From contig JBNKBE010000006.1 of the NCBI GenBank assembly GCA_050287085.1, positions 207,189 to 271,188 on the forward strand: 64,000 nucleotides of DNA, given 5' to 3'. Source of the DNA: Polyangiaceae bacterium. GTDB lineage: Bacteria; Myxococcota_A; Polyangia; Polyangiales; Polyangiaceae. The notes below the pieces were generated by a model. It saw only the letters and a program-made list of their open reading frames with translations. It did not search any database and was not told where the DNA came from. Below, in pieces: positions 46,010-64,000 of the stretch. Every line of letters begins with the position of its first letter. The first letter of the stretch is position 1. The position numbers and the translations under genes are program-made.

Positions 46010-46342
46010 TCACCCTTCCGGATGTTCGTTTGCAAACGCCGCGAGGCTCTCCTGCGAGATTCGGATCTGAACCAGTCCGTCCCTTTCGATTCGAGCCTGA
46101 CAGCCTAATCGAGACTGGATTCGAACGTCGAAGGCCTTGTCGAGAATATCCTCCTCGTCTTCGGACGCATCGCTCAATAGCTCCGCCCCCCCCTCCACGT
46201 AGACGTGACACGTGGAGCAGGCACAAACGCCTCCGCAGGCATCACCTTCGGGCGCCTTCGCTTTGCGAGATGCCTCCAGAATGCTCGTCCCCACAGGCAC
46301 TTCCACCGAAAGCCCCTGCTCTAGAAATTCAACTGTCGCCAT
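46010..46342 (-). CDS. fdx: ISC-type [2Fe-2S] ferredoxin
   Basis: CGGVCACSTCH, SRLGCQ; last gene of isc operon. Confidence 0.95.
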   Translation of the reverse strand: MATVEFLEQGLSVEVPVGTSILEASRKAKAPEGDACGGVCACSTCHVYVEGGAELLSDASEDEEDILDKAFDVRIQSRLGCQARIERDGLVQIRISQESLAAFANEHPEG

Positions 46343-48321
46343 CAATCCTCCGAGAAGTCAAGCAGCCCTGCCGAAGCATTGCTCCCCACTTCGCGTTCTT
46401 TCCGCGCGGCGTCATGCTCGCGCACATGAGCGTCCACGCCTTTGGCTTGCGCTACGTCGGCGAAGACCTGCTCCACGCCCTGGCCCGCGAGCGCCTCCAA
46501 GATCGCCTGATTCATGCGCCTACCAGCCCAATCATGGGTCGCTTGATCCAGGGCTTCCACGCAGTTTTGTACCTGCCCCGGTCGCTTCGCGTCGGCGATC
46601 GCGCGGCGGAGTTCAGCCATTGCCTGCTCAATGCGACTCCGCTCCTCGGCGTTCAGCAAGGAATTGCCCCCATCCGATTGCAGCGCCTTTTCCGTCGCAA
46701 GCAACAACCGGGAGCCCTCCACCCGCGCCTCGACAAGCCGTCGCAGCTCAAAGTCGTCTTCACCATGATCGAGCGCGTCAATCAACATTCGCTCAACCTG
46801 CTCGTCGTCCAAGCCGTAGCTGGGCTTCACTTCCACGCTCTGAGACACCCCCGTTGTCAGCTCTCTGGCATCAACTGTGAGCAGCCCGTTTTCGTCGACC
46901 GAGAAGTGCACCTCGAGCCGCGCCTGGCCCGCCGGCATGGGAGGAACCCCCTTCAAGGTAAAACGAGCCAGCGAGCGACAGTCGGCTGCCAGCTCACGCT
47001 CCCCCTGCACAACGTGGATCTCAAAACCGGTCTGATTGTCCGCGTAGGTCGTAAACGTGGCGCGAGCCCCAGTTGGAATGGTCGTGTTGCGCGGCAGAAT
47101 CTTGTCCACCGCGCCGCCCATGGTTTCCACGCCAAGCGACAGCGGCAACACGTCGAGCAGCAGGACCTCGTCGCTTGCCTGCGAGAGGAGCTCGGCCTGC
47201 AGCGCCGCGCCATAGGCCACAACCAAGTCAGGGTCGATATCCCCCAGCGGCTCCCGTTCGAAAACCGAGGCCACGTACCGCCGCACCACGGGCGAGCGAG
47301 TGCTGCCCCCCACCAGGATGATGCCATCGAGTTCATCGGGGCTGAGCTCCGCATCGCGCAGGGCTTTTCGACAAGCGCGCCCCGTCCGTTGCAACAAGGG
47401 CTCCGCCAGCTTGGCAAACGCCATGCGATCGATGGTGTATTCCACCTCACCGCCCCCGCGCTTGGGCAGCTTGGCAACGACCGTTGCGGCCTCCGTCAAG
47501 CCGTGTTTGGCGCGGCGAGCTGCCCCAAGCACCACGCCGATCACTTCCGGCGGAGCCGTCTTCGGCTCAAACCCCATCAGCGACAGCATTTCCGCGGCCA
47601 CAAGGCGATCGATATCATCGCCCCCCAGCGCCGAGTCCCCACCGGTTGCCCGCACCTGAAATACGCCATCCTCCAGGCGCAGGACCGTGACATCGAAGGT
47701 GCCTCCCCCCAAGTCATAGACGACGAAGGTACCGTTCTGCCCCTTCTCCAAGCCATACGCCAACGCGGCAGCGGTCGGTTCGTTGAGCAAGCGCAGCACA
47801 TTCAGTCCGGCAATTCGCCCAGCGTCCTTGGTCGCCTGACGCTGCGCGTCGTCGAAGTAGGCGGGCACCGTGATCACCACTCCTCCTACGGCTCCCAGCT
47901 GTTCGCGCGCGCTTTGATGCAGACTGCGCAGGAGCTCCGCACTTGCCTCCACGGCGCTGACCACTCGGTTGCCCACATCGAAGCGGACGACGCGGCGCTC
48001 GGCGTCATTGTCCGCACTCGCAAAGCGGTACGTAGACAACGCCTGCAGCTGCTCGTCGTCCATACCACGACCGATGAAGCGCTTGACGCTCTGCAGCGTG
48101 CGCTGAGGCTCACGCTCGGCGTAGCTCAGTGCACTGCGGCCTACGATCACTTCCCCATGCGCCCCGTAGTGAACCACGCTGGGCAGCAGCTGTCCGCCGT
48201 CGCAGTTGGTGAGAGCGAATGGCCGTTCGTCGCGCACGACCGCCACCACGGAGTTGGTTGTTCCAAGGTCGATGCCGATGGCTTGGGGAGGGGCTTTGGG
48301 ATCAAAGATGTCGAGTAACAT
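46342..48321 (-). CDS. hscA: Fe-S assembly Hsp70 chaperone
   Basis: GIDLGTTNS, TVPAYFDDAQRQAT, DLGGGTFD, RRMNQAILEAL; operon context. Confidence 0.95.
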   Translation of the reverse strand: MLLDIFDPKAPPQAIGIDLGTTNSVVAVVRDERPFALTNCDGGQLLPSVVHYGAHGEVIVGRSALSYAEREPQRTLQSVKRFIGRGMDDEQLQALSTYRFASADNDAERRVVRFDVGNRVVSAVEASAELLRSLHQSAREQLGAVGGVVITVPAYFDDAQRQATKDAGRIAGLNVLRLLNEPTAAALAYGLEKGQNGTFVVYDLGGGTFDVTVLRLEDGVFQVRATGGDSALGGDDIDRLVAAEMLSLMGFEPKTAPPEVIGVVLGAARRAKHGLTEAATVVAKLPKRGGGEVEYTIDRMAFAKLAEPLLQRTGRACRKALRDAELSPDELDGIILVGGSTRSPVVRRYVASVFEREPLGDIDPDLVVAYGAALQAELLSQASDEVLLLDVLPLSLGVETMGGAVDKILPRNTTIPTGARATFTTYADNQTGFEIHVVQGERELAADCRSLARFTLKGVPPMPAGQARLEVHFSVDENGLLTVDARELTTGVSQSVEVKPSYGLDDEQVERMLIDALDHGEDDFELRRLVEARVEGSRLLLATEKALQSDGGNSLLNAEERSRIEQAMAELRRAIADAKRPGQVQNCVEALDQATHDWAGRRMNQAILEALAGQGVEQVFADVAQAKGVDAHVREHDAARKEREVGSNASAGLLDFSED

Positions 48322-48346
48322 GAAGATTGGCTCTGGCGGCGAAGGT

Positions 48347-48892
48347 TCAAGCGAGCTGCATTTCGTCCAACTGCGAGGTCGCCTCATCGACAAGTCGCTG
48401 CAGATAGCGCAGCTCCGCCAAGGAGACGAAGAGCTCGGACACCTCCGCGCATTGTGTCCGCTCGGATTCCGGAATCGCTTGTGCGGCAGTGAATAAGGCC
48501 GCCAAGTGCTCCAGTGCGGCCCCCCGTCGATCAGAGGCGCGGCGGACCAACTTGGACAAGGCGCTCTCATCGCGAGCCGCCACATAGGAGCTCAGCTCTT
48601 CCCTCAGTTCCATCATCTCGAACAAGAAGGATTGAGACGTCGAGCCCTTGGGTTCGGCCAGTCCTAGGCGAGAGAGCAGCAATTCGGCGCGACGCACCGG
48701 ATCGCGCAAAGCGCGGTGCGCCTCATTGACGGCGATGGCGTCACTCAACGCGCGCCGCCGCTCGGCGGGCAATGCACCCACGAAGCGATCGGGGTGCAAC
48801 GCTCGGGAAAGCTCCAGATGTCGCTTGTCGAGCGTTGTGCGTTCCAGCGCAAATACCGGTTCAAGCCCCAGAGTGTCGTAGGCGTCAGTCAT
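48347..48892 (-). CDS. hscB: Fe-S co-chaperone
   Basis: J-domain HPDRF, LRDPVRRAELLL, FLFEMMELRE. Confidence 0.93.
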   Translation of the reverse strand: MTDAYDTLGLEPVFALERTTLDKRHLELSRALHPDRFVGALPAERRRALSDAIAVNEAHRALRDPVRRAELLLSRLGLAEPKGSTSQSFLFEMMELREELSSYVAARDESALSKLVRRASDRRGAALEHLAALFTAAQAIPESERTQCAEVSELFVSLAELRYLQRLVDEATSQLDEMQLA

Positions 48893-48982
48893 GCCAATTA
48901 GCTTCGACAAGCCCCCATGGATCAGACCGAGAGCCCGCCCCAACACAGCGATGCACTACGACCTTGCCACGCGGCGGACTCG

Positions 48983-49462
48983 CTACTTCACGGTAAACGA
49001 GTGTCCACAACCACAGCTCGCAGCTTCCTGTGGATTGAGGTACTTGAAGCCGCGAAACATCATCGTGTTCACATAGTCCAAAGTGGAACCGCCAAGATAG
49101 ATCAAGCTCTTCTTGTCGACGTAAAAACGCACGCCACCGTAGTCCGCAACCGTGTCCCGCTCACGCGGGGGCTCGTCCGAAAACTCGATGACGTACTGAA
49201 ACCCGCTGCAACCGCCGCCGCGCACGCCAAGCCGAATCGCCGCGTCGGGCGTGCCGCGCTTCAGCAAACGCTGCTTGGCGTACTTCACGGCAGCCTCGCT
49301 CACATGTATTCCGGGGCGCGCGCGGCCAGCGGGCTCAGGACGCTGGGGTGCGTCACTGGGCTCTCCCACGGCGGCGCCCGAAGAGGAGTGCTCATCACGC
49401 TCAACGGGGCGGCTGACGCCACTTGCGACTCCTGATGTCATCGAAGCCACCGCAGCTGTCAT
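48983..49462 (-). CDS. iscA: A-type Fe-S carrier with N-terminal extension
   Basis: GGGCSGFQY, CGCGHSF; ATGA overlap with iscU. Confidence 0.93.
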   Translation of the reverse strand: MTAAVASMTSGVASGVSRPVERDEHSSSGAAVGEPSDAPQRPEPAGRARPGIHVSEAAVKYAKQRLLKRGTPDAAIRLGVRGGGCSGFQYVIEFSDEPPRERDTVADYGGVRFYVDKKSLIYLGGSTLDYVNTMMFRGFKYLNPQEAASCGCGHSFTVK

Positions 49463-49863
49463 TTGTCCGCCAATGCCTTTCGCGCCGCTTGTTTCTTGCG
49501 GAAGTCCTCGACAGCGCTCTTGATCGCATCTTCCGCCAGCACCGAGCAGTGAATCTTCACGGGTGGCAAGTTGAGCTCCTCCGCGATCTGGCTGTTGCTG
49601 AGCTTCTCCGCTTCGTCGAGGCGCTTGCCTTTGATCCACTCCGTGGCCAGAGACGACGAGGCAATGGCCGAACCACACCCGAAGGTCTTGAACTTCGCGT
49701 CTTCAATCACGCCATCGTCGCTGACTTGAATCTGCAAACGCATGACGTCGCCACACGCTGGAGCCCCCACCAGCCCTGTTCCCACGCTCTCCGACGACGC
49801 GTCCAACGTCCCGACGTTGCGCGGATTCTCGTAGTGCTCGATGACTTTATCGCTGTAGGCCAT
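49459..49863 (-). CDS. iscU: Fe-S scaffold
   Basis: MAYSDKVIEHY, APACGDVM, FGCGSAIAS, LPPVKIHCS. Confidence 0.98.
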   Translation of the reverse strand: MAYSDKVIEHYENPRNVGTLDASSESVGTGLVGAPACGDVMRLQIQVSDDGVIEDAKFKTFGCGSAIASSSLATEWIKGKRLDEAEKLSNSQIAEELNLPPVKIHCSVLAEDAIKSAVEDFRKKQAARKALADK

Positions 49864-49923
49864 GATGGTCTCCTAATACAGTCCGTGTTTCTCGGATGTT
49901 AAGCTCATTGTAAATAGCAAGCC

Positions 49924-49968
49924 CAGGGCGCTTCCTAGCAGGGCGCTTCCTAGCAGGGCGCTTCCTAG
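49924..49968. repeat. 15-bp tandem repeat CAGGGCGCTTCCTAG x3 between iscS and iscU
   Basis: Three exact copies plus a degenerate fourth. Confidence 0.9.
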
Positions 49969-49992
49969 CAGGACGCATCCTGTTCAGAATGT

Positions 49993-51216
49993 TCAGTGCG
50001 CCGCCCATTGAATGCTCTTGATGTCGATGCCTTGCTGGTGCATCTCGTAGAGTGGCGACATCTCACGCAGCTTCTTGACCTTGGCGCTGACCAAGTCGGC
50101 AACGTAATCCACTTCCTCTTCGGTGTTGAAGCGACCGAGGCCAAATCGAAGCGATGAGTGAGCGAGATCCTCGTCAAGCCCCATTGAGTGAAGCACGTAG
50201 CTCGGCTCCAAGCTGGCGCTGGTACACGCAGAGCCACTCGAAACCGCAACGTCTTTGATCGCCATCATCAGGGCTTCGCCCTCGACGAACGCAAACGAAA
50301 TATTCAGGTTGCCGGCCAGGCGCTGCGTCGGATGTCCGTTGAGAAAGATCTGGTCCAACGCATCGCCAAGACGACGATGCAAGCGCTCTCGAAGGGCGTG
50401 AAGCCGCTCCGCCTCCGCCTTGCCCTCGGCCATCATCAACTCACAAGCCTTGGCGAACCCCACGATGCCCGGCACATTCAAAGTCCCAGAGCGGTTGCCC
50501 CGCTCATGACCACCACCATCCATCTGGGCGGTCAGGCGAACACGGGGCTTGGAGCGGCGCACATACAACGCCCCTACCCCCTTCGGACCGTAGATCTTGT
50601 GGGCCGTGATCGACGCCAGATCCACGTTCATCGCTTCGACGTCAAAGGGCGTCTTGCCCACGCCTTGAACCGCATCGGTATGAAGCAGGACCCCCGCCTT
50701 GCGGGTCAGGGCGCCAATCTCTTGTAGCGGCTGAATCGTTCCAACTTCATTGTTGGCCAACATCACGCTCACAAGAATTGTCTTGTCCGTCAGTGCGGCG
50801 GCGATCTTCTCCGGCTCAACGAGGCCCTGCTCGTTGGCTTTGACATAGGTTACCTCAAAGCCATCGCGCTCGAGCCGTTTGCAACTATCCAGCACGGCCT
50901 TGTGCTCTATGCTGGAGGTAATGATGTGATTGCCTCGCGGACGGTAGTACTCTGCCACCCCTTTGATCGCGAGGTTGTCGCTCTCCGTAGCCCCGGAGGT
51001 GAACACGATTTCCTTGCCGCTCTTTGCGCCGATGAAAGCGGCAATCTTCTCACGCGCGTCGTCTACCGCGGCTTCTGCCTGCCAGCCGAACGCGTGAGTG
51101 CGACTGGCTGCATTGCCGAAGTGCTCGGTGAAATACGGGAGCATGGCCTCTACCACACGCGGGTCGACAGGCGTCGTCGCGTGGTTGTCCATGTAGATGG
51201 GTAACTTGATGGTCAT
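49993..51216 (-). CDS. iscS: Cysteine desulfurase
   Basis: [43 protein letters not shown]-terminal SPLYEM...QWAAH. Confidence 0.98.
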
Positions 51217-51257
51217 ATCAGTCTCGGTTTAGAAGCCTTTGTACCGGTGGCAAACGC

Positions 51258-51830
51258 TCACAGATTGACAGCCGCACCCGCCACCAGTTCTGGGGCCTTG
51301 CCGCCGCCCCGTTGGTGCGCAGCACAGCTCTTGCAGTCGGGATCGTTCACTTCGTGCTCGCAGGCGCTGGTACAGGTGTTGAGAAACGCCAGGCTGGCTT
51401 CCAACTCAAGCTCAAGTTCCCGGTACTTGCGTACCGTTTCACGCACCTCGGCGAGCTTCTCGGAGTACACAGCCTTCAAGTCGGCCGCGGCACGGCGCGC
51501 CGATTCGGACGCTGCCCTTTGCAGCATGATGGCCTGGATATCCGGCAACGACAGGCCGAGGCTCTGCAGCTTGGTGATCCACGACACCCGGAGCCGTGCG
51601 TCCGGAGCATACAGCCGATAGCGCCCTTTACTGCGCCGCACGGGCGTCAGCAGGCCCAAATCCTCGTAGAGGTGAATGGCACGCACGGTCTTGCCCGTGG
51701 CTTTCGCTAACTCCCCCACCTGGAGCAGGCTGTCTTCCTCCCATTCGACGCGCCCCACGGCCATTCCCTTCGCCTCGAGCTCCGGCTCGGGGCTGCCCAT
51801 GACAGCGAGATGGCGACGGGGTTTGGTCAT
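51258..51830 (-). CDS. MerR-family regulator with C-terminal Cys cluster
   Basis: VGELAKATGKTVRAIHLYEDLGLL, YRLY, coiled coil, C-x3-C-x8-C-x2-C; start could be 51830 or 51800. Confidence 0.88.
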   Translation of the reverse strand: MTKPRRHLAVMGSPEPELEAKGMAVGRVEWEEDSLLQVGELAKATGKTVRAIHLYEDLGLLTPVRRSKGRYRLYAPDARLRVSWITKLQSLGLSLPDIQAIMLQRAASESARRAAADLKAVYSEKLAEVRETVRKYRELELELEASLAFLNTCTSACEHEVNDPDCKSCAAHQRGGGKAPELVAGAAVNL

Positions 51831-51915
51831 CAGACGTGGTGGTAGGAGGGCTGGCACCGGGAAGGAGCGAACGCGAAGCCCGCGTTCGGAATGTGAGGCG
51901 AGGTGCCACCAACAC

Positions 51916-51939
51916 AACCCTTACGTATGGGTGAGGGTT
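51916..51939. promoter_or_regulatory. Dyad operator candidate AACCCTTAC-N6-GTGAGGGTT
   Basis: 8 of 9 bp inverted repeat just downstream of the predicted promoter of the merR-isc unit. Confidence 0.55.
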
Positions 51940-52131: not shown

Positions 52132-52208
<77 letters not shown>

Positions 52209-52325: not shown

Positions 52326-52360
52326 AAAGGCTCCGGAAGACAAACTTCCGGAGCCTTTTT
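52326..52360 (+). terminator. Second intrinsic terminator
   Basis: AAAGGCTCCGGAAG-ACAAA-CTTCCGGAGCCTTTTT perfect stem. Confidence 0.75.
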
Positions 52361-52682: not shown

Positions 52683-52711
52683 TTGCCGTGCTACCGAAGC
52701 TGTGGTACGTT
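52683..52711 (+). promoter_or_regulatory. Candidate sigma-70 promoter of the peptidase-PIN-Beta operon
   Basis: TTGCCG-N17-TACGTT with extended -10 TG. Confidence 0.45.
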
Positions 52712-52738
52712 TGTTCAGTAATTTGACGAGGTCCAACA

Positions 52739-53746
52739 CTGGCCGACGAACGCTCCATCCCATCGCTTCTAAAACGCTTGAACCGCGCAGGGTTCAAGCG
52801 GGAGTTCGTACGCTCTGCAGTTTGTCCTGAGTGGTGGGATGAGACCTGCGAACGGGACCCTTCGCTCCTTTCTGACTTGGAATTTCGAGTAGCGCGGTTT
52901 CTCGGTGTATCGATATCCGACGTACGTGATGGGAGCTTTTCGCTTTCCGCACCAGCCTACTCAGGAGCCCAGCTCCGACGCGTGCGTGATCTGGAGCGCG
53001 ACAGGCTAGGTCCTGCAATTCACACTGCCATTCGATTGGCTGGCGCCGTCGTTCGGTCGCTTCGGTCGGATTCCGCACCTAATCCTCCCCCATCTAGCGC
53101 CCGTGCGTGGCGCTCAACCCTCATTGGCAACACGGCAGCGGTCACCCTTGACGGCTTGCTGGCAGATCTTTGGGCGCGAGGTATCCCCGTCGTCCCGATC
53201 GAGCGCCTTCCCGCACCGAGCTTTCAGGGGCTTGCGTGTGTAGTTGAAGGGCGTCCGGTAGTCCTTCTCGGACACAAGAACGATGAACCCGGGCGCGTTG
53301 CCTTTCTGCTAGCGCATGAAGCCGGGCACATCGCTAATGGCGACTGCACGGAGGAGACGCCCGTCGTTGACGAGGAGGAAAGCATTGGAGACGACGCGGA
53401 AATCGAGACTCGCGCGGACAGTTTCGCGCGCGAGGTCTTGGTGGGCGCTGGCGACTTCCCAGGAATCGATGGGCAGTCCTTCAAGGACCTAGCATCAGGT
53501 GCCGTCGCACTGGAACGAACGCTGGGGGTAGACGCAAGCTTCGCGATCTTCGCCTGGGCTCAGAAGACCCGTGACTACGCAAAGGCGACATTGGCTGTCA
53601 AGGCGCTCTACCGGCACATTGGCGCTCGTCGGAAGCTTCGGAAGCGTTTTGACGAGCATGTGGACGTCGATGGAGCGTCGGAGAGCGACCGTGCTCTGCT
53701 GCGCTGTGTGTTTGGCGCTCAGGAGCACAATGAAGCTGCTGATTGA
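52739..53746 (+). CDS. ImmA/IrrE-family (peptidase M78-like) zinc metallopeptidase
   Basis: GRPVVLL...RVAFLLAHEAGH...ETRADSFAREVL; start inferred at CTG 52739 (GAGGT RBS), otherwise TTG 52778. Confidence 0.85.
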   Translation: MADERSIPSLLKRLNRAGFKREFVRSAVCPEWWDETCERDPSLLSDLEFRVARFLGVSISDVRDGSFSLSAPAYSGAQLRRVRDLERDRLGPAIHTAIRLAGAVVRSLRSDSAPNPPPSSARAWRSTLIGNTAAVTLDGLLADLWARGIPVVPIERLPAPSFQGLACVVEGRPVVLLGHKNDEPGRVAFLLAHEAGHIANGDCTEETPVVDEEESIGDDAEIETRADSFAREVLVGAGDFPGIDGQSFKDLASGAVALERTLGVDASFAIFAWAQKTRDYAKATLAVKALYRHIGARRKLRKRFDEHVDVDGASESDRALLRCVFGAQEHNEAAD

Positions 53747-54323
53747 CTCTGACGCATTCTGTAAGCTCGGAATCGCAGGAGTATTGGACGACCTAGCTGC
53801 GCAACTTGGCGCAACATTGACAGAAGCTGGGCGCCTCCCCGCGCTTCCCCATATGCTTCGGCGAGGGAAGCTTCGACGGCTCTACGGAGGGGCGAACTGC
53901 GACTCGCTGTTGACATTGGCCAACGCCCTACGACCCGTGCCAGATGCTCCACCTGAGTGGCTCGACGCGCTTGTGCACCTGGACGGGGTTGATCCAGGAG
54001 AAGCCCAGTTGTTCGCGCTCGCAGCATCGCAGTGCCTGTACGTCGCAACGGGTGACAAGCGTGCTTTGCGAGCGCTTCGCGGAGTGCCCCAACTCGTCGA
54101 CGCGCTTGATGGCCGTGTCGTCGTGATGGAGGCGGCTCTGTTGTCCGCGTGTACCACACTCGGTGTGGATGTTGTTCGTCTGCGTGTCGTTCCGCTTGGC
54201 GAGGCCGACACAATGATTCGTGTGTGCTTCTCTGGGAACGGCGACCCGAGGCAGGGCCTGTTATCCTACCTTGAACACACTGAGCAAGAGATGCAGCCAT
54301 TGACCCTTTGGAGGTCAACGTGA
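53730..54323 (+). CDS. PIN-like domain protein
   Basis: LLIDSD at N-terminus, VDPGEAQLF, ATGDKRAL; AGGAG RBS; overlaps the peptidase stop. Confidence 0.78.
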   Translation: MKLLIDSDAFCKLGIAGVLDDLAAQLGATLTEAGRLPALPHMLRRGKLRRLYGGANCDSLLTLANALRPVPDAPPEWLDALVHLDGVDPGEAQLFALAASQCLYVATGDKRALRALRGVPQLVDALDGRVVVMEAALLSACTTLGVDVVRLRVVPLGEADTMIRVCFSGNGDPRQGLLSYLEHTEQEMQPLTLWRST

Positions 54324-55396
54324 GCGCAGCCGAATCCGACTTCGGCTGCGACCACTATGTGCCGGTGCTCAAGGTGAAGCGCGCCGAGAAGACGGCCTTG
54401 ATGCTGCTCCCAGCGCATGCGCGCTCGCGGATCACTCCGCTACTCGAAATCGTTGAGCGCAAGCCAGAGGTCACTCTCGCAAAGCACCTAGAGAACGCTT
54501 TTCGAGATCTCTCTGCGTCGCTGGAAGGTACGGAGCGGTGCTTCCTCGATGCGCACGAGATCTCTCCTGACGGGAACTCGGGTGCAATGGCGGTCTTCGC
54601 TCGCGCGGCGACAGACAGCATATCATTCACGCCGGTCACAGGGATCTCGCGCACCGTAGATGTGGCCGCAGCTCTGCTGTACCGAGCGCAAGGGACAGCG
54701 ATTCGACTATCGCGGGCTGACTTCGAAGCAGGAACGCTTCAGCGGCGTCTTCTCGGTTTCCTGGGGACGCACCAACTTCGCCCCGAAGACGTCGACCTAA
54801 TCGCTGACCTGGGCCCCGTCGACGACATGGTATCCTTGGGGGTCGAAGCACTGGCTGATGCCTTTATGGCGGACATCCCCAATCAGTCTCAGTGGCGAAC
54901 ACTTACGCTCTCTGCCTGTGCCTTCCCAGCCGGCTTGGGAGCCATCGAGAGATACTCGGATGGGTTCGCGGACCGCATTGATTGGGTCGCATTGCGGAAC
55001 ACTGCGGCTGCGCGCGCTCGGCAGTCTCTTCGGGTACCCACGTACAGCGACGGGGCGATTCAGCATCCCATTGGGGTCGAGGGATTTGACCCAGTTAAGA
55101 TGCAAGTGTCGGCGTCAGTGCGCTACACAACGGGGGAGAGGTGGCTGTTGATGAAGGGTGAGAGCATTCGCCGTCGCCCACCAAGCGCCCAGTACAAGGA
55201 TCTCGCGACGCACCTTGCGCACGGCCACTTGTCGGGCAATTTCTTTGGAGCCTCGCACTGCCCTGGTTGCGCTTCGGTCAGAGCTGCCGCATCAGGCGCG
55301 TCAGGACACGGTTCGCTTGAAGCGTGGGGACGGATCGGAACGCTTCACCACATCGTCTGCGTCTTGAACGACATCAAGTCGTCTTGCGGGTCTTGA
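54320..55396 (+). CDS. Beta-family protein (Beta_protein / Sce7725-like)
   Basis: YVPVLKVKRAEKTAL, ITPLLEI, DLIADLG, AFP, YSDGAIQHP, SVRYTT, C-terminal W..IGTLHHI; GTGA overlap and GGAGGT RBS. Confidence 0.8.
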   Translation: MSAAESDFGCDHYVPVLKVKRAEKTALMLLPAHARSRITPLLEIVERKPEVTLAKHLENAFRDLSASLEGTERCFLDAHEISPDGNSGAMAVFARAATDSISFTPVTGISRTVDVAAALLYRAQGTAIRLSRADFEAGTLQRRLLGFLGTHQLRPEDVDLIADLGPVDDMVSLGVEALADAFMADIPNQSQWRTLTLSACAFPAGLGAIERYSDGFADRIDWVALRNTAAARARQSLRVPTYSDGAIQHPIGVEGFDPVKMQVSASVRYTTGERWLLMKGESIRRRPPSAQYKDLATHLAHGHLSGNFFGASHCPGCASVRAAASGASGHGSLEAWGRIGTLHHIVCVLNDIKSSCGS

Positions 55397-56048
55397 GAGC
55401 GGCTCGAACAGCGGCAGCAACTTCATCCAAGCTCAGGTGCTCGCAAACGCGGTCCCATACAGCTGCACGCGGCTTGCCCCGCACGCCGACGGCTAGTCCG
55501 CGAGCCTCCAAGAGTGCCATCGCCTCGCTGAGCCACAGAAGCTCAGCTAGTGCTCTCGGATTCCGAGATGGGTTCTTTCTCCCTTTGCGTACCGCTCGCA
55601 GTACTGGCTGATCGCGCCGCTGGGCGGCAACGGTTACCCCCCACCATTTCGGCACGAGCTTGGTAGCTGCGATCAAGTGCTTTTCGCCAACGACCAACGT
55701 TACGCGATCAAGCACCCGTCCGTACATCTCGACTTGAGCGGGAAGCCGCCGCAGGGTGTCTCGATCCGACTTGATCTCGTACCCGTGAAGGCTGCCGTTC
55801 ACCACAGCGACATCGACCCGGTTCTGTCCACGGCAAAGACCTAGCTCGTCAACGATCACCGTATCCGTTTCTGTGAAGTGTTCGGCTTCCAGCTTGATTC
55901 GCAGGACGCGACGCAGAGCTGCGTCGTCTGGGACGATGCTTGTGGAGTCGGCGACCGGCGAATGGTTGCTTGAGCACATTGATAACTTAGCTGGCGCAAA
56001 GCCCTCGAGTCCGCAGCCCCGGGACGCGAGACGTTCAATCGAGCTCAT
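55374..56048 (-). CDS. Sce7726-family protein (PD-(D/E)xK-like)
   Basis: IVDELGL...RVDVAVVNGSLHGYEIKSDRDTLRRLPAQ...Y; PKWWGV; LAELLW. Confidence 0.82.
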   Translation of the reverse strand: MSSIERLASRGCGLEGFAPAKLSMCSSNHSPVADSTSIVPDDAALRRVLRIKLEAEHFTETDTVIVDELGLCRGQNRVDVAVVNGSLHGYEIKSDRDTLRRLPAQVEMYGRVLDRVTLVVGEKHLIAATKLVPKWWGVTVAAQRRDQPVLRAVRKGRKNPSRNPRALAELLWLSEAMALLEARGLAVGVRGKPRAAVWDRVCEHLSLDEVAAAVRAALKTRKTT

Positions 56049-56257
56049 TTGACCGCTCCGTGCTCCCGGAGGATGTCCTGCACCGTTGCCATGTCGTACG
56101 CGACGTCACAGCACCACGTGCCGGAACCGCCCTTGGTGTTGACGCCCTCGACCCAGGCCCGCATCGCTGCAACCTTGGCTCTGCTCGCTACCCTCGCCCT
56201 TCACCTCAAGTGTCCCTGCGGCGCGACGACGATGGACGTCTTCTGTGCCTCATTCAT
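56045..56257 (-). pseudogene. Collapsed restriction-modification operon remnant: 18-codon N-terminal stub fused to a type III Res-like C-terminus
   Basis: MNEAQKTSIVVAPQGHLR* (56257-56201), then LEVKGEGSEQ / AKVAAMRAWVEGVNTKGGSGTWCCDVAY...K* with a frameshift. Confidence 0.6.
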
Positions 56258-56450
56258 CTCGGTCCTTCTTTCCGGAAACGCTTTGCGTCTGCTGCCCGAT
56301 CCACTCGTCGAGGTCTGAACGACGAAGGCGCCACTGGCCACGGACTTTGAATGCCGGCAACTCACCCTGTTGCGCCATCGTATATACGGTCTTGTCCGCG
56401 ACCTTGAGCAAGGCCGCGACCTCTTGAACCGTCAAGATCTCAGCGGTCAT
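56250..56450 (-). CDS. Excisionase-like HTH DNA-binding protein
   Basis: ILTVQEVAALLKVADKTVYTMAQQGELPAFKVRGQWRLRRSDLDEWI. Confidence 0.9.
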   Translation of the reverse strand: MTAEILTVQEVAALLKVADKTVYTMAQQGELPAFKVRGQWRLRRSDLDEWIGQQTQSVSGKKDRDE

Positions 56451-60361: not shown

Positions 60362-60417
60362 ACTTCACTAAAATGACCGCCTTTACCGGCGAGTGAAGGT
60401 GGCGAATTTAGTGAAGT
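60362..60417. terminator. Long hairpin between convergent tail tube and abiEii
   Basis: ACTTCACTAAA...TTTAGTGAAGT perfect 11-bp IR with inner CCGCCTTTAC/GTGAAGGTGG stem. Confidence 0.6.
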
Positions 60418-61310
60418 CGCCAGCTCCACTCGTCGGGCTCCCAGGTCCCGTTGAGCTCGCCAGCAAGGACGGGGTCGAGGAAGGTCTGGGCAGCCTTGGT
60501 CACTTCCTCGAGAGTTCTCCAGGGCAGCTGATCGTCCCGCGCCATGGCCGCATACGGCGTCGTCCACGCCGAAAGGGGCTCTGGCACCTTCCCTGGCAGG
60601 GCATGCGTCTTGCGATGCGTGAAGGTCTGCTCAAGCGCGTCGCGCAGCCGTTTTCCGTCAATGGCCTGCGCACTGGCGAGCAGCGCGATATCGGGGAGAT
60701 CTTTGACGCGTGAATTGGGGCGTGGCCGCGGCATTGTGTACGCGTGCAGCTTCTCGGCGAGATGTGTTTCGATCGGGTAGATGCGAAGTGTTGGGGGTGC
60801 GATCCCCGCGAAGGCAAGCACGTCAGCAGCGACAGCTACTTCAGGCTCGCCAAAGATGGGATCACCGAAGGCGACGTCAACACCGAAGGGCTGCCCGTAG
60901 AGTTTCCCGGCCAGCTTGCACGCTGCCCGGAAACGAAGTCCGTCGTACTGCACGGCATCATTCTGGATCTCCGGGTGGTCCGCGTCAGGCTCGATCTCGA
61001 ACGTCAGGAAATCGCCGAGTTCAAGACGCGCAGCCTCCCGCAGTCTTGTCAGCACATCGTGGGGCGAGCCCACCAGGCGTAGGTCGACATCCTTCGTCGT
61101 GCGGGCGCGTTCGAGGCGTAGCTCAAGGACGAGACCGCCCTTCAGGGTCACTGCACTACCGAGCACGGCGACGACGCGCGCAAGGAAGCGATCGAACACC
61201 AGTAGCTGCCGGCTGCGGGTGAACGCGGCCCCGGATTTCGCAGCGGACCGCAGACGCTGCTCGAGGGCTTGCTTGAAGGCCTCGGGCGAAGAGTACGAGC
61301 GGGCCGTCAT
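60408..61310 (-). CDS. abiEii: AbiEii/AbiGii-family nucleotidyltransferase toxin (type IV TA)
   Basis: LKGG, RTTKDVD, AEKLHA, SRVKDLPD. Confidence 0.92.
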   Translation of the reverse strand: MTARSYSSPEAFKQALEQRLRSAAKSGAAFTRSRQLLVFDRFLARVVAVLGSAVTLKGGLVLELRLERARTTKDVDLRLVGSPHDVLTRLREAARLELGDFLTFEIEPDADHPEIQNDAVQYDGLRFRAACKLAGKLYGQPFGVDVAFGDPIFGEPEVAVAADVLAFAGIAPPTLRIYPIETHLAEKLHAYTMPRPRPNSRVKDLPDIALLASAQAIDGKRLRDALEQTFTHRKTHALPGKVPEPLSAWTTPYAAMARDDQLPWRTLEEVTKAAQTFLDPVLAGELNGTWEPDEWSWRLH

Positions 61311-61894
61311 GCCGCGAGCCCTCCGAATGGTCTGAGCGCTTCCTCGACAGCGCCGAGTTCAGCTTCGGCGACGATTCCACGGTGGAGGGCCTGCTGCGCT
61401 GCCTGCCGCAGCAGCTCCGGCGAGAGGCCGCCGCGTGCGCAGTCGTTGAGCGTTCTTCCCGCGTTGGTAATTGGTACGGAGCCGAACCACGTTCGGTCCG
61501 TGACGGACACGTCGTCGTGATGGAGCACGACACCGGGAGGCACGCGAAAACGACGCTGGCGCCAGGTGCTCGGGAGCGTGAGGTGTATCTGCGCCGGCAG
61601 CACGTCGGACAGGTCGTGCAGTACTAGCGCCGATTGGTGTGAGATGATCCCGACCTGCTCAGACCAAAGCCACGCGGTCACCAGCTCCTCGTGTTCGGTC
61701 GCAGGGAAGTGGACGAGGCGATAGATGCCGCGCCTCGACCGGGCGACACGTCCAGCTTGACTGTGCTTTCTGAGCAGGTGGGTGGAGTAGCCGGCCTCCG
61801 CGGCCTGTTGGGTGGTGAAGTAGCCAGCCTGCGCCGAAGCCAGCTCAAACAGCCGGTCCCAGTCCGGCTTGTTGGTGCTCTCAGGTCGGGCCAT
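61307..61894 (-). CDS. abiEi: AbiEi-family antitoxin / regulator
   Basis: ASAQAGYFTTQQA, RGIYRL, ISHQSALVLH.LSD, PITNAGRTLND; ATGA overlap with toxin. Confidence 0.9.
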   Translation of the reverse strand: MARPESTNKPDWDRLFELASAQAGYFTTQQAAEAGYSTHLLRKHSQAGRVARSRRGIYRLVHFPATEHEELVTAWLWSEQVGIISHQSALVLHDLSDVLPAQIHLTLPSTWRQRRFRVPPGVVLHHDDVSVTDRTWFGSVPITNAGRTLNDCARGGLSPELLRQAAQQALHRGIVAEAELGAVEEALRPFGGLAA

Positions 61895-61973
61895 GCACAA
61901 AACGTAACCCTGAGTTCCCTTTTGTGCAAGAAGCCGCCGCGCACAAAACGTAACTGTTGGTTCCCTTTTGTGC
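61895..61973. promoter_or_regulatory. Two tandem 33-bp imperfect palindromes upstream of abiEi
   Basis: GCACAAAACGTAAC-N5-GTTCCCTTTTGTGC at 61895-61927 and 61941-61973. Confidence 0.8.
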
Positions 61974-62031
61974 GCCCCTCGCCCTCGGACCTGCCACCGT
62001 CCTCGCGTGGTTCTTGTCGATGCACGGATGG

Positions 62032-62209
62032 CTACTGGGGACGTTTGCGGCAGAAGCAATACACGAAGGACTGGGCGCTGCCCCAAGGCGTTTCATGGAT
62101 CTCGGCAGCATCCCCCACCTTGTCGTAGAGGCCGCCAAATGCGGAGTGGATGCCGGCGGCATCGTAGAGAGCGCTCCAGATGGGGGCGGTACCAGCTGAC
62201 CTCACCTGG
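62032..62209 (-). pseudogene. Internally deleted class I SAM methyltransferase remnant
   Basis: N-terminal motif [13 protein letters not shown] joined out of frame to C-terminal [11 protein letters not shown]...[18 protein letters not shown]. Confidence 0.65.
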
Positions 62210-63151: not shown

Positions 63152-63814
63152 ATGGGCCTAAACAATATGGGCCTTGGCTTCGTGTTCACGGCCCGCGACC
63201 TGGCTTCGGGCTCGATGCGCCGGCTCGAGCGCAACTTCATGAGCCTCGATCAGCGCGTGGGGCTCGGCGCCGATCGCATCCAGACCTCCTTTGCGCAGCT
63301 CGGTGCGGGGCTCGCGCTCTTCACCGCAGGTGCCGCGGCCGTGGGCGCGGGACTGTCACTGGCGAACGCCGCTGGTCAGTTCGAGCAGGGACTCGCGGCA
63401 ATCGGCGCCGTCACCCGGGCAACGTCGGACGAGCTCGGCATGCTTCGCAACGCCGCCATCCAGGCTGGCATCGAAACGCAGTTTTCGCCCGACGAAGCGA
63501 TCGCTGGGCTCCAGTCCCTCGCGACCGCGGGACAGACCGCCACGCAGGCCACGCAGACCCTCATCCCTGTACTTGACTTGGCAGCAGGCTCACTGGGCCA
63601 GCTCGGCGTCGCCCAGGCCGCGGAAGCCGTCGTCGGTACGCTCAACGCCTACGGCATGGCCGCCAATCAGTCCGCTGGTGTGACGGACCGCCTGCTCCGG
63701 ATCACGCAGCTCACCAACTTCCAGACGCGGGACTTCGAAGCTGGACTCTCCAAGGCAGCGGCGACCGGTGCGGTCTTTGGACAGAGCTTGGATGACGTGC
63801 TCATCGGCATGGGC
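63152..63814 (+). pseudogene. TP901-type tail tape measure protein, N-terminal part only
   Basis: Own translation: [19 protein letters not shown]...[12 protein letters not shown]...[19 protein letters not shown]...VLDLAAG; breaks after IGMG into antisense IS66. Confidence 0.85.
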
Positions 63815-63960
63815 TTCGAGACGAACACGAAGAGATCGCCCACGGGGACATCGCGCTTCATGGCGCTTTGCACCACGACGGCGAGCGTGTTGAAGCTTCT
63901 GCGCATGTCGCACGGCTGGTCAAAGAGAAATACCTCGACTCCGCGTGGTAAGCCGATCAT
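63814..63960 (-). mobile_element. tnpB: IS66-family TnpB (Orf2) accessory gene, truncated
   Basis: [23 protein letters not shown]...GDLFVFVSK, then the family pattern stops. Confidence 0.85.
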
Positions 63961-64000
63961 GCGAGCGCCCTCACCAGTCGCGCTACGTCATCGATCGAAA
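63957..64000 (-). mobile_element. 3' end of probable IS66 TnpA (Orf1)
   Basis: [13 protein letters not shown] with ATGA overlap onto tnpB. Confidence 0.55.

Follow-up and report, generated by a model that had tools for sequence, protein, structure and literature searches.

What does a compact cluster of four intact genes beside a tRNA gene do for its host, and are the four one system or two pairs lying side by side? Both questions are raised by a locus in a 64,000-nt window (the whole stretch of DNA that was analyzed) from Polyangiaceae bacterium GCA_050287085.1, contig JBNKBE010000006.1, positions 207,189-271,188 of the forward strand; all coordinates are window positions, and the contig ends at window position 64000. 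The cluster encodes an M78-type zinc peptidase, a PIN-fold protein, a beta protein and, converging on beta, a Sce7726-family protein (cII). We identified it as one conserved cassette that belongs to the P4 beta/cII - PD-lambda-2 (TIM-B) defense family and is a member of no single named system. A role in defense, as the initial annotation had supposed, is very probable. To the whole of a specific mechanism, a mobile toxin-antitoxin (TA)-type cassette against phages and other mobile elements in which the PIN protein would be released by proteolysis, we give about an even chance. The features are the following.

52132..52208, + strand: tRNA-Met(CAT), probable integration site at the island's left edge (ARAGORN)
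52683..52711, + strand: promoter candidate, -35 TTGCCG, 17-bp spacer, extended -10 TGnTACGTT (sequence)
52728..52741, + strand: Shine-Dalgarno GAGG and non-canonical CTG start of the peptidase gene (conservation across loci)
52739..53746, + strand: M78/ImmA-IrrE-type Zn peptidase, 335 aa, N-terminal PxWW domain, presumed antitoxin/switch (profiles, PADLOC)
53730..54323, + strand: VapC-fold PIN protein, 197 aa, C-terminal extension of ~60 aa, presumed RNase toxin (predicted structure)
54320..55396, + strand: Beta/TIM-B protein, 358 aa, homologue of P4 beta and PD-lambda-2C, TIM barrel (PF14350, PADLOC)
55374..56048, - strand: Sce7726-family protein with a PD-(D/E)XK nuclease motif, P4 cII homologue, convergent on beta (NF033832, PADLOC)

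All four reading frames were open on re-reading at the places first described, and so were the overlaps found, namely 17 bp at 53730-53746, GTGA at 54320-54323, and a convergent 23 bp at 55374-55396. The catalytic motifs are likewise present: HEAGH (193-197) with E223 in the peptidase, the acidic set D6/D8, G90-E91, and T107-G108-D109 in the PIN protein, and E68..D79..E91-I-K93 in cII. Position 52683, the left end initially given, is no start codon in the peptidase frame, which holds stops there; it is the position of the -35 box of the promoter candidate.

The initial family calls for the four genes were right, by Pfam, NCBIfam, PADLOC, structural matches, and profile search. The peptidase scored 20.6 bits against Pfam M78 (cut-off 22), with 53 of 67 homologues matching at E<=0.05, and its profile matched CapP 7t5t (E 1e-4) and IrrE 8slm (0.0085). 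PADLOC identified PD-Lambda-2_B (4e-7 over residues 132-227) along with capP and RmrA models, the latter weakly and in the peptidase core alone (best 6e-6). The HExxH and downstream Glu of M78 (ImmA/IrrE/CapP) peptidases are present; E194, H197, E223, W32, and W33 were conserved in 67/67 members, H193 in 66/67, C203 in 65/67, and R186 in 61/67, and the positions of C203 and R186 are mostly V/L and W in the wider peptidase family (498 representatives at E<=1e-30). Within the N-terminal domain, no member of the 67 had a helix-turn-helix (HTH) match in Pfam, the XRE profile aligned over 17-19 columns only (probability 12-30), and an Atlas search with residues 1-125 returned nothing above 0.78, the full-length protein leading to M78 clusters; an origin from an XRE HTH is suggestive only.

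The PIN protein had no match in Pfam, NCBIfam, or PADLOC, RmrT included, and only 2 of 120 homologues matched Pfam PIN, weakly. Its AF2 model (predicted local distance difference test, pLDDT, 95) has as best structural match the VapC toxin 6sd6 (Z 10.2, root-mean-square deviation [rmsd] 3.6, 120 aligned), and the top 10 structural rows were all VapC-type PIN proteins (Z 9.0-10.2, model residues 1-134); the best Foldseek E value was 0.029, not significant by itself. By sequence conservation, D6, D8, E91, D109, and E134 are present in 120/120 homologues and D88 in 113/120. A search of plasmids with the PIN protein gave two weak partial matches only.

The beta protein matched Pfam PF14350 (E 8e-47) and, over its full length, PADLOC PD-Lambda-2_C (2e-29) and not a model named beta. 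Its alignment with P4 beta covers the full length (303 columns) but is weak (E 0.002). The cII protein matched NCBIfam NF033832 with 167.6 bits (cut-off 70), PADLOC cll at 2e-31, and P4 cII with a probability of 99 (E 3e-18), and its residues E68, D79, E91, K93, Q105, and Y109 are conserved in 55/55. The P4 record (NC_001609) annotates beta as beta family and cII as sce7726 family, and profile searches of solved structures with beta and cII gave nothing significant. The beta model (pLDDT 94) has TIM-barrel structural matches, generic ones only in Foldseek and in a second-look alignment. Its D77, D163, D244, H313, C314, C317, and H343 were found in 58/58 sequences, and the H313-C314-x-x-C317...H343 motif, present in 58/58 of the cassette clade, is absent from the other beta proteins inspected. 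The C-x-x-C...H spacing is near that of the tRNA-guanine transglycosylase (TGT) of the same genome (26 vs 27 residues), in which we take the Cys/His motif to be the TGT zinc site. An archaeosine TGT (Z 12.4, rmsd 4.6, 270 aligned) and a TGT (Z 12.3, 4.4, 266) gave the longest structural alignments to beta, unrelated TIM barrels tied with them (Z 12.6 and 12.5), and a sequence-profile comparison of beta with the TGT of the same genome found no relation (probability 0.3). The initial view that Beta and Sce7726 proteins lack a settled function was mistaken, since both are homologues of P4 beta and cII and occur in tested defense systems; gop-beta-cII protects against lambda and P1 (PMC9122126).

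We analyzed whether the four genes recur together by two scans. The PIN-anchored scan of species genomes, covering the best 80 of 93 matches, gave 79 loci under record titles that span about a dozen phylum-level groups. All four genes in the same order and orientation were identified in 62 of these 79, a count that includes one within-genome duplicate, frameshifted copies, and one locus (L042; loci are cited by such numbers) with its peptidase mostly deleted; a strict intactness filter was passed by 42. The other 17 comprise 4 loci truncated where their contigs end, 5 from distant relatives that have neither beta nor cII, and 8 with partial deletions. The Beta-anchored scan was concordant. It covered 2 viral matches and, of 240 from metagenomes, the best 80, some of them near-duplicates. 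Peptidase and PIN were present in 63 of the 65 loci whose upstream sequence reached 1 kb or more, and cII in 73 of the 73 with 300 bp or more downstream. The 17-bp peptidase/PIN overlap recurs 52 times, beta and cII overlap by 35 or 44 bp in 47/62, and pairwise distances of the four proteins are correlated (rho 0.59-0.79, 43 sets). No fifth conserved gene was found in the 79 loci and the window. The pairs thus co-occur across many genomes as one conserved four-gene unit, as the initial annotation had proposed, and not by chance juxtaposition.

Distribution of the cassette is patchy, and the cassette is mobile. The PIN profile was identified in 5 of 301 genomes of the order, 4 of the 5 being distant two-gene pairs, PF14350 in 7 of 401 genomes of the phylum, and the cII profile in 11 of 400 genomes of the class (a tally that includes one unpublished genome). 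On a quick tree of 33 chosen rows, phyla are mixed, and a long branch with support 100 separates the cassette peptidases from 7 two-gene peptidases; the PIN tree supports that split with 67 only, and both trees are unrooted.

Both halves also occur in other arrangements. Peptidase-PIN pairs without beta or cII, a sister group, were found at 9 loci (L072-L075, L166, L168-L170, and L185). The phylum sample held six further beta loci, namely two quartets, three loci with HigB, HTH-M78, and beta, one of which has a convergent cII, and one broken locus; five cII loci widened from the 11 were two quartets already counted, two with M78, beta, and cII, and one with beta and cII alone. The layout of RNase and M78 peptidase, then beta, then a convergent cII is thus a template in which the head can be exchanged, at least between PIN and HigB. 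Four-gene analogues with HigB, HTH-M78, beta, and convergent cII lie at L179:3576-6743, L252:2580-5983, and L251:2544-5693; HigB was recognized by Pfam only in L179, and L251 adjoins apparent type I restriction-modification (R-M) genes. Beta with convergent cII and no recognizable upstream toxin head was seen at L081, L184, and L250, including the Rac-like prophage Rac-SA53. Among the two-gene pairs, that of L073 is flanked by type III Res and Mod genes, and those of L074 and L185 have a common neighboring BpsA_C/spermidine-synthase-family gene. At L063 (320-1780), a frameshift fuses peptidase residues 1-311 (H193 -> Y) with PIN residues 1-128, and a second peptidase copy begins at the contig end.

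This modularity bears on a rather unlikely alternative, that the cassette is two layered, separate modules travelling together without direct contact between the halves. Beta and cII would be the front line, for example a base-exchange "modifier" or inhibitor with a nuclease, like a minimal restriction-modification pair, and peptidase-PIN would be a back-up or addiction TA firing when the front line is blocked. That each pair occurs without the other would suit such an arrangement, as would the conserved beta/cII 3' overlap, the long TGT alignments of beta, and the position of the gop-beta-cII trigger orf184 next to the anti-restriction gene ral (10.1101/2023.04.06.535777). Against it stand the near-complete linkage in the clade, the position of all cassette peptidases beyond the 100-support branch, a locus (L026) that has an intact cII without beta, and beta with an RNase+M78 head but without cII (L178 and L180), an arrangement in which beta is required (PMC9519451).

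The peptidase and the PIN protein are predicted to bind each other. Co-folding of the pair gave a score of 0.89 against 0.02 for the best control; the contacts were the same (100%) in all three runs, with a partner pLDDT of 91 or more. Among solved pairs 116 of 157 reached this mark, and among mismatched pairs 2 of 215, figures that hold only roughly for the alignments used. In the model, peptidase residues 30-63, including the invariant W32/W33, face PIN residues 36-48, 69-93, and 111, on helices adjoining D88-E91 and R111, so that the N-terminal PxWW domain is predicted to sit beside the PIN active site.

Natural deletions bear on the roles of the parts. The PIN gene is truncated and the peptidase motif set whole at L070, L076, and L078; L125 lost both the peptidase N-terminal piece and PIN, and L031 retains a whole PIN together with the peptidase N-terminal piece. 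This decay pattern fits PIN as the toxin and the peptidase N-terminal domain as the antitoxin, with L042 as an awkward case, and the decayed copies and the predicted complex make the peptidase-gated PIN toxin of the initial annotation the best model. L026 lost beta and kept the catalytic residues of PIN, peptidase, and cII, which in this one genome argues against beta as an obligate inhibitor and suggests that beta is not the antitoxin. The contrary proposal (10.64898/2026.10.19.760177, section 33), in which beta would inhibit the effector and the peptidase would be a second de-repression step, draws on the reported toxicity of Gop without beta (as cited in PMC9122126) and on the invariant acids of beta. 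We consider it clearly improbable, with intact PIN genes lacking beta at L026, at L031, and in the two-gene pairs, with PIN predicted to be bound by the peptidase, and with PD-lambda-2C required for defense but not for neutralization (PMC9519451).

In the peptidase frame a stop at 52724 is followed by GAGG and then by CTG 52739, and this CTG behind GAGG is most likely the start. In a survey of 108 distinct loci (126 before identical ones were removed, with four distant loci excluded), the equivalent codon is CTG in 58, GTG/TTG in 16, ATG in 7, ACG in 6, and another in 21; the CTG-start loci have a Shine-Dalgarno sequence in 53 of 58 and an upstream stop without intervening ATG in 44. The PIN start codon is ATG in 60 of 65. 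With a conserved CTG start, the N-terminus of the peptidase is one that standard gene callers will tend to clip. A start at TTG 52778 is less likely. The cII gene may start at ATG 55979, since homologue alignments to its protein mostly begin at residues 25-45. The promoter candidate fell under the threshold of a consensus scan; its extended -10 element TGnTAnnnT does recur upstream in 45 of the 108 related loci, with shuffles giving a mean of 9.5 and a maximum of 20. A strong terminator-like hairpin of 14 pairs lies at 52326-52358, between the tRNA gene and the cassette promoter.

The weak start gives some purchase to a reversed polarity, as in PD-lambda-2, in which the peptidase would be toxic, the PIN-fold protein would neutralize it, and the weak CTG would limit a dangerous protease. 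PD-lambda-2B is toxic and rescued by 2A (PMC9519451), CTG/ACG starts are conserved, and the same predicted complex fits. We nevertheless think this quite unlikely: whole peptidase motif sets persist beside truncated PIN genes at L070, L076, and L078, the PIN protein has five invariant acids, and RmrA-type peptidases are antitoxins, with delta-rmrA not transformable (10.1101/2022.05.11.491447; PMC10440598).

With PIN as the presumed toxin, the cassette could work as follows. A three-gene operon would be weakly translated from CTG, with PIN coupled to the peptidase through the observed 17-bp overlap. The peptidase N-terminal domain (~30-63), as placed in the predicted complex, would bind PIN beside its catalytic acids and keep it off. 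On infection the HExxH peptidase, normally damped by Cys203 and an acidic loop, would be switched on and would cut its own N-terminal antitoxin domain or the linker, freeing PIN for RNA cleavage and cell arrest; this activation and release step is modeled on CapP, IrrE, ImmA, and RosmerTA. Beta, like PD-lambda-2C, would be needed for triggering and not for neutralizing, and would act through its TIM barrel, probably on nucleobases or nucleic acid. The cII protein, on the opposite strand, would form a second, DNA-cutting arm and may supply the DNA damage that activates the peptidase. The DNA-damage trigger proposed at the outset is only weakly supported: a CapP-like Arg and a loop Cys are present, but no match to GAF, the C-terminal domain that makes up the ssDNA groove of CapP/IrrE, was found in the 67 peptidase members, and the IrrE alignment stops near profile position 296, where the ~35 residues that remain are too few for one. 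Activation of CapP by ssDNA depends on a Cys in the loop and on R90, which precedes the first His by seven residues, but also on the GAF domain (PMC13228613).

A bolder variant, which we regard as speculative and unlikely, would make beta an active base-exchange enzyme, TGT-like and binding zinc, by which nucleic acid of the invader (or the host) is marked or damaged. Together with the cII nuclease, beta would make the signal that opens a cysteine-switch peptidase, and this would then cut off its own antitoxin domain and free the PIN RNase. The antitoxin domain would be an XRE HTH with its recognition helix turned into the toxin-binding PxWW motif, and the conserved CTG start would set the threshold. 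If true, the immune cascade would run from a transglycosylase fold through a protease to an RNase, as so far shown for no system, and it would explain why M78 peptidases accompany beta whether the head is HigB or PIN.

The genomic surroundings add to the argument for defense. Downstream of the cassette, which is 3' of tRNA-Met, are an excisionase HTH, recombinase scraps, tail genes, AbiE, and an IS66 scrap. Of the decayed neighbors described initially, the excisionase HTH, a tail tube, a short tail-sheath fragment, and the IS66 scrap were confirmed by Pfam; the shredded R-M genes at 56045-56431 had no Pfam match and were identified by eye only. The quartet is not the sole intact defense unit of the island, since an AbiEi/AbiEii pair at 60408-62086, between tail-tube and baseplate-type genes, looks intact. 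A sister element in the same genome (G000:C24:43620-55258, L216) carries tRNA-Asn, a complete type I R-M system in the cargo slot that the quartet occupies in the window, an excisionase HTH, and a serine recombinase, which is intact there and reduced to a short piece in the window. No att repeat was found for the island. In the context survey, which compared 42 loci with 20 random stretches from four genomes and took in two called genes to either side, the nearest ones (150 of 153 scanned), defense, TA, or mobile-element neighbors (R-M, TA, DUF499/DUF1156, Schlafen, integrase, transposase, or similar) were identified at 19 of 42 loci against 0 of 20 random stretches, or 2 of 20 if classed generously (Fisher p 0.0002-0.009); the classing from Pfam names and gene calls is our own, and kin loci are not independent. 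A stress-response or element-stabilizing (addiction) module without an anti-phage role would suit a cassette in an integrative element at a tRNA gene and the many loci among housekeeping genes. It is very improbable, given that the closest characterized homologues of three of the four genes come from tested defense systems and that the sister element holds R-M in the same slot.

Several side observations concern these surroundings. Quartets lie inside or beside DUF1156/DUF499 loci at L026, L035, L040, L054, and L061 (between the DUF1156 and DUF499 genes in L061), several copies being in decay. The R-M system of the sister element has a Macro-domain gene between hsdS and hsdR. The tail DNA flanking AbiEi/AbiEii is 74-83% identical to C24:87700-91639, and an IS66 tnpB fragment at 63667-63960 interrupts a tape-measure-like gene (tape-measure by eye). 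On the host side of the tRNA, 46010-51917 holds Fe-S assembly genes (IscS, IscU, IscA, HscB, HscA, and ferredoxin-like, by eye) and a MerR-type regulator.

A number of points weigh against PIN release by proteolysis in an anti-phage cassette. L042 keeps 178 of ~203 PIN residues although its peptidase is almost entirely deleted, and the deletion cases as a whole are a small set from metagenome-assembled genomes whose expression is uncertain. The peptidase protein of PD-lambda-2 (2B) is the toxic part on over-expression (PMC9519451), and a weak start that is conserved is easier to square with a toxic peptidase than with an antitoxin needed in excess. With no GAF match among the 67 members, ssDNA sensing as in CapP/IrrE is doubtful. 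As both halves occur alone (beta and cII at L081, L184, and L250), cross-talk between them stays putative, and in our searches the link of beta to TGT was not separable from generic TIM barrels. At 23 of 42 loci no annotated defense or mobile neighbor was found, and of the two viral contigs that match beta, one is too short upstream for a head and the other is headless. Toxicity, protection, and the enzyme activities of the cassette are all predicted.

Both gop-beta-cII and PD-lambda-2 protect against phage, and this compact and widespread member of the family makes the beta/cII mechanism testable; its four parts each have a mutable catalytic motif, with a predicted antitoxin-toxin interface in addition, and the natural deletion variants separate inhibitor from activator roles for beta. 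For the TA class of peptidase and PIN, which the literature found had predicted from gene neighborhoods only, the complex model also offers a hypothesis on structure.

Both halves and the general template are already in print. The initial claim that the four-part combination was undescribed therefore holds only for its PIN-headed form: a template of effector, metallopeptidase, TIM-B, and convergent restriction endonuclease (REase) is given in 10.64898/2026.10.19.760177, and a literature search for peptidase, PIN, beta, and cII together, with most subscription papers outside it, found no description. We compared the cassette with the named systems, none of which it fits fully. With gop-beta-cII (P4, NC_001609) it shares beta followed by a convergent cII and an operon in which toxin gene(s) precede beta, but it has a peptidase and PIN where P4 has gop (133 aa), with no gop model match in PADLOC. 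Beta and cII overlap in the cassette, whereas a terminator lies between them in P4; the HCxxC motif is missing from P4 beta, and the cassette beta appears dispensable for neutralization. With PD-lambda-2 (PMC9519451; four-gene forms L179, L252, and probably L251) it shares an RNase fold, M78, and beta, and the forms with cII have the same four-part layout. It differs in having PIN instead of HigB (no HigB or PD-Lambda-2_A match), the peptidase gene first, a PxWW domain with at most trace HTH similarity in place of the HigA/XRE HTH, and a beta of a different subfamily.

The computationally defined TIM-B systems (10.64898/2026.10.19.760177) combine TIM-B, a variable effector, an optional metallopeptidase, and a convergent overlapping REase, all of which are found in the cassette. 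PIN is not among the effectors in the preprint's text, although its Figure 6B and supplements, outside our comparison, could list it. The metallopeptidase stands there between effector and TIM-B, whereas it comes first in the cassette, and the preprint casts beta as a negative regulator, whereas our deletion data fit an activator better than an inhibitor. The HTH-DUF955(M78)+PIN three-component TA (PMC5499597) and the RosmerTA/NetFlax node D25 with PIN (PMC10440598) likewise have the peptidase directly upstream of PIN and, as proposed here, serving as antitoxin or switch; the cassette differs from them in lacking a recognizable DNA-binding HTH, in its attached beta and cII, and in predicted direct toxin binding rather than transcriptional de-repression. 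CapP/CapH and IrrE/DdrO share the M78 core HExxH+E, and by spacing the cassette Arg at H-7 takes the position of CapP R90. CapP and the cassette also have in common that the loop following HExxH holds acidic residues and a Cys, which stands at H197+6 here and at H101+13 (C114) in CapP; the cassette has no GAF match and no separate repressor gene. The Toutatis proteins TutA/TutB were considered and are unrelated (10.1101/2024.07.02.601686). Because the backbone and the peptidase-PIN pairing are each known, the novelty lies in a peptidase-PIN head on a beta/cII backbone, and what is new comprises the PIN head, the predicted interface, the conserved CTG start, the clade-specific Cys/Arg, the beta HCxxC..H motif, and the deletion evidence on beta.

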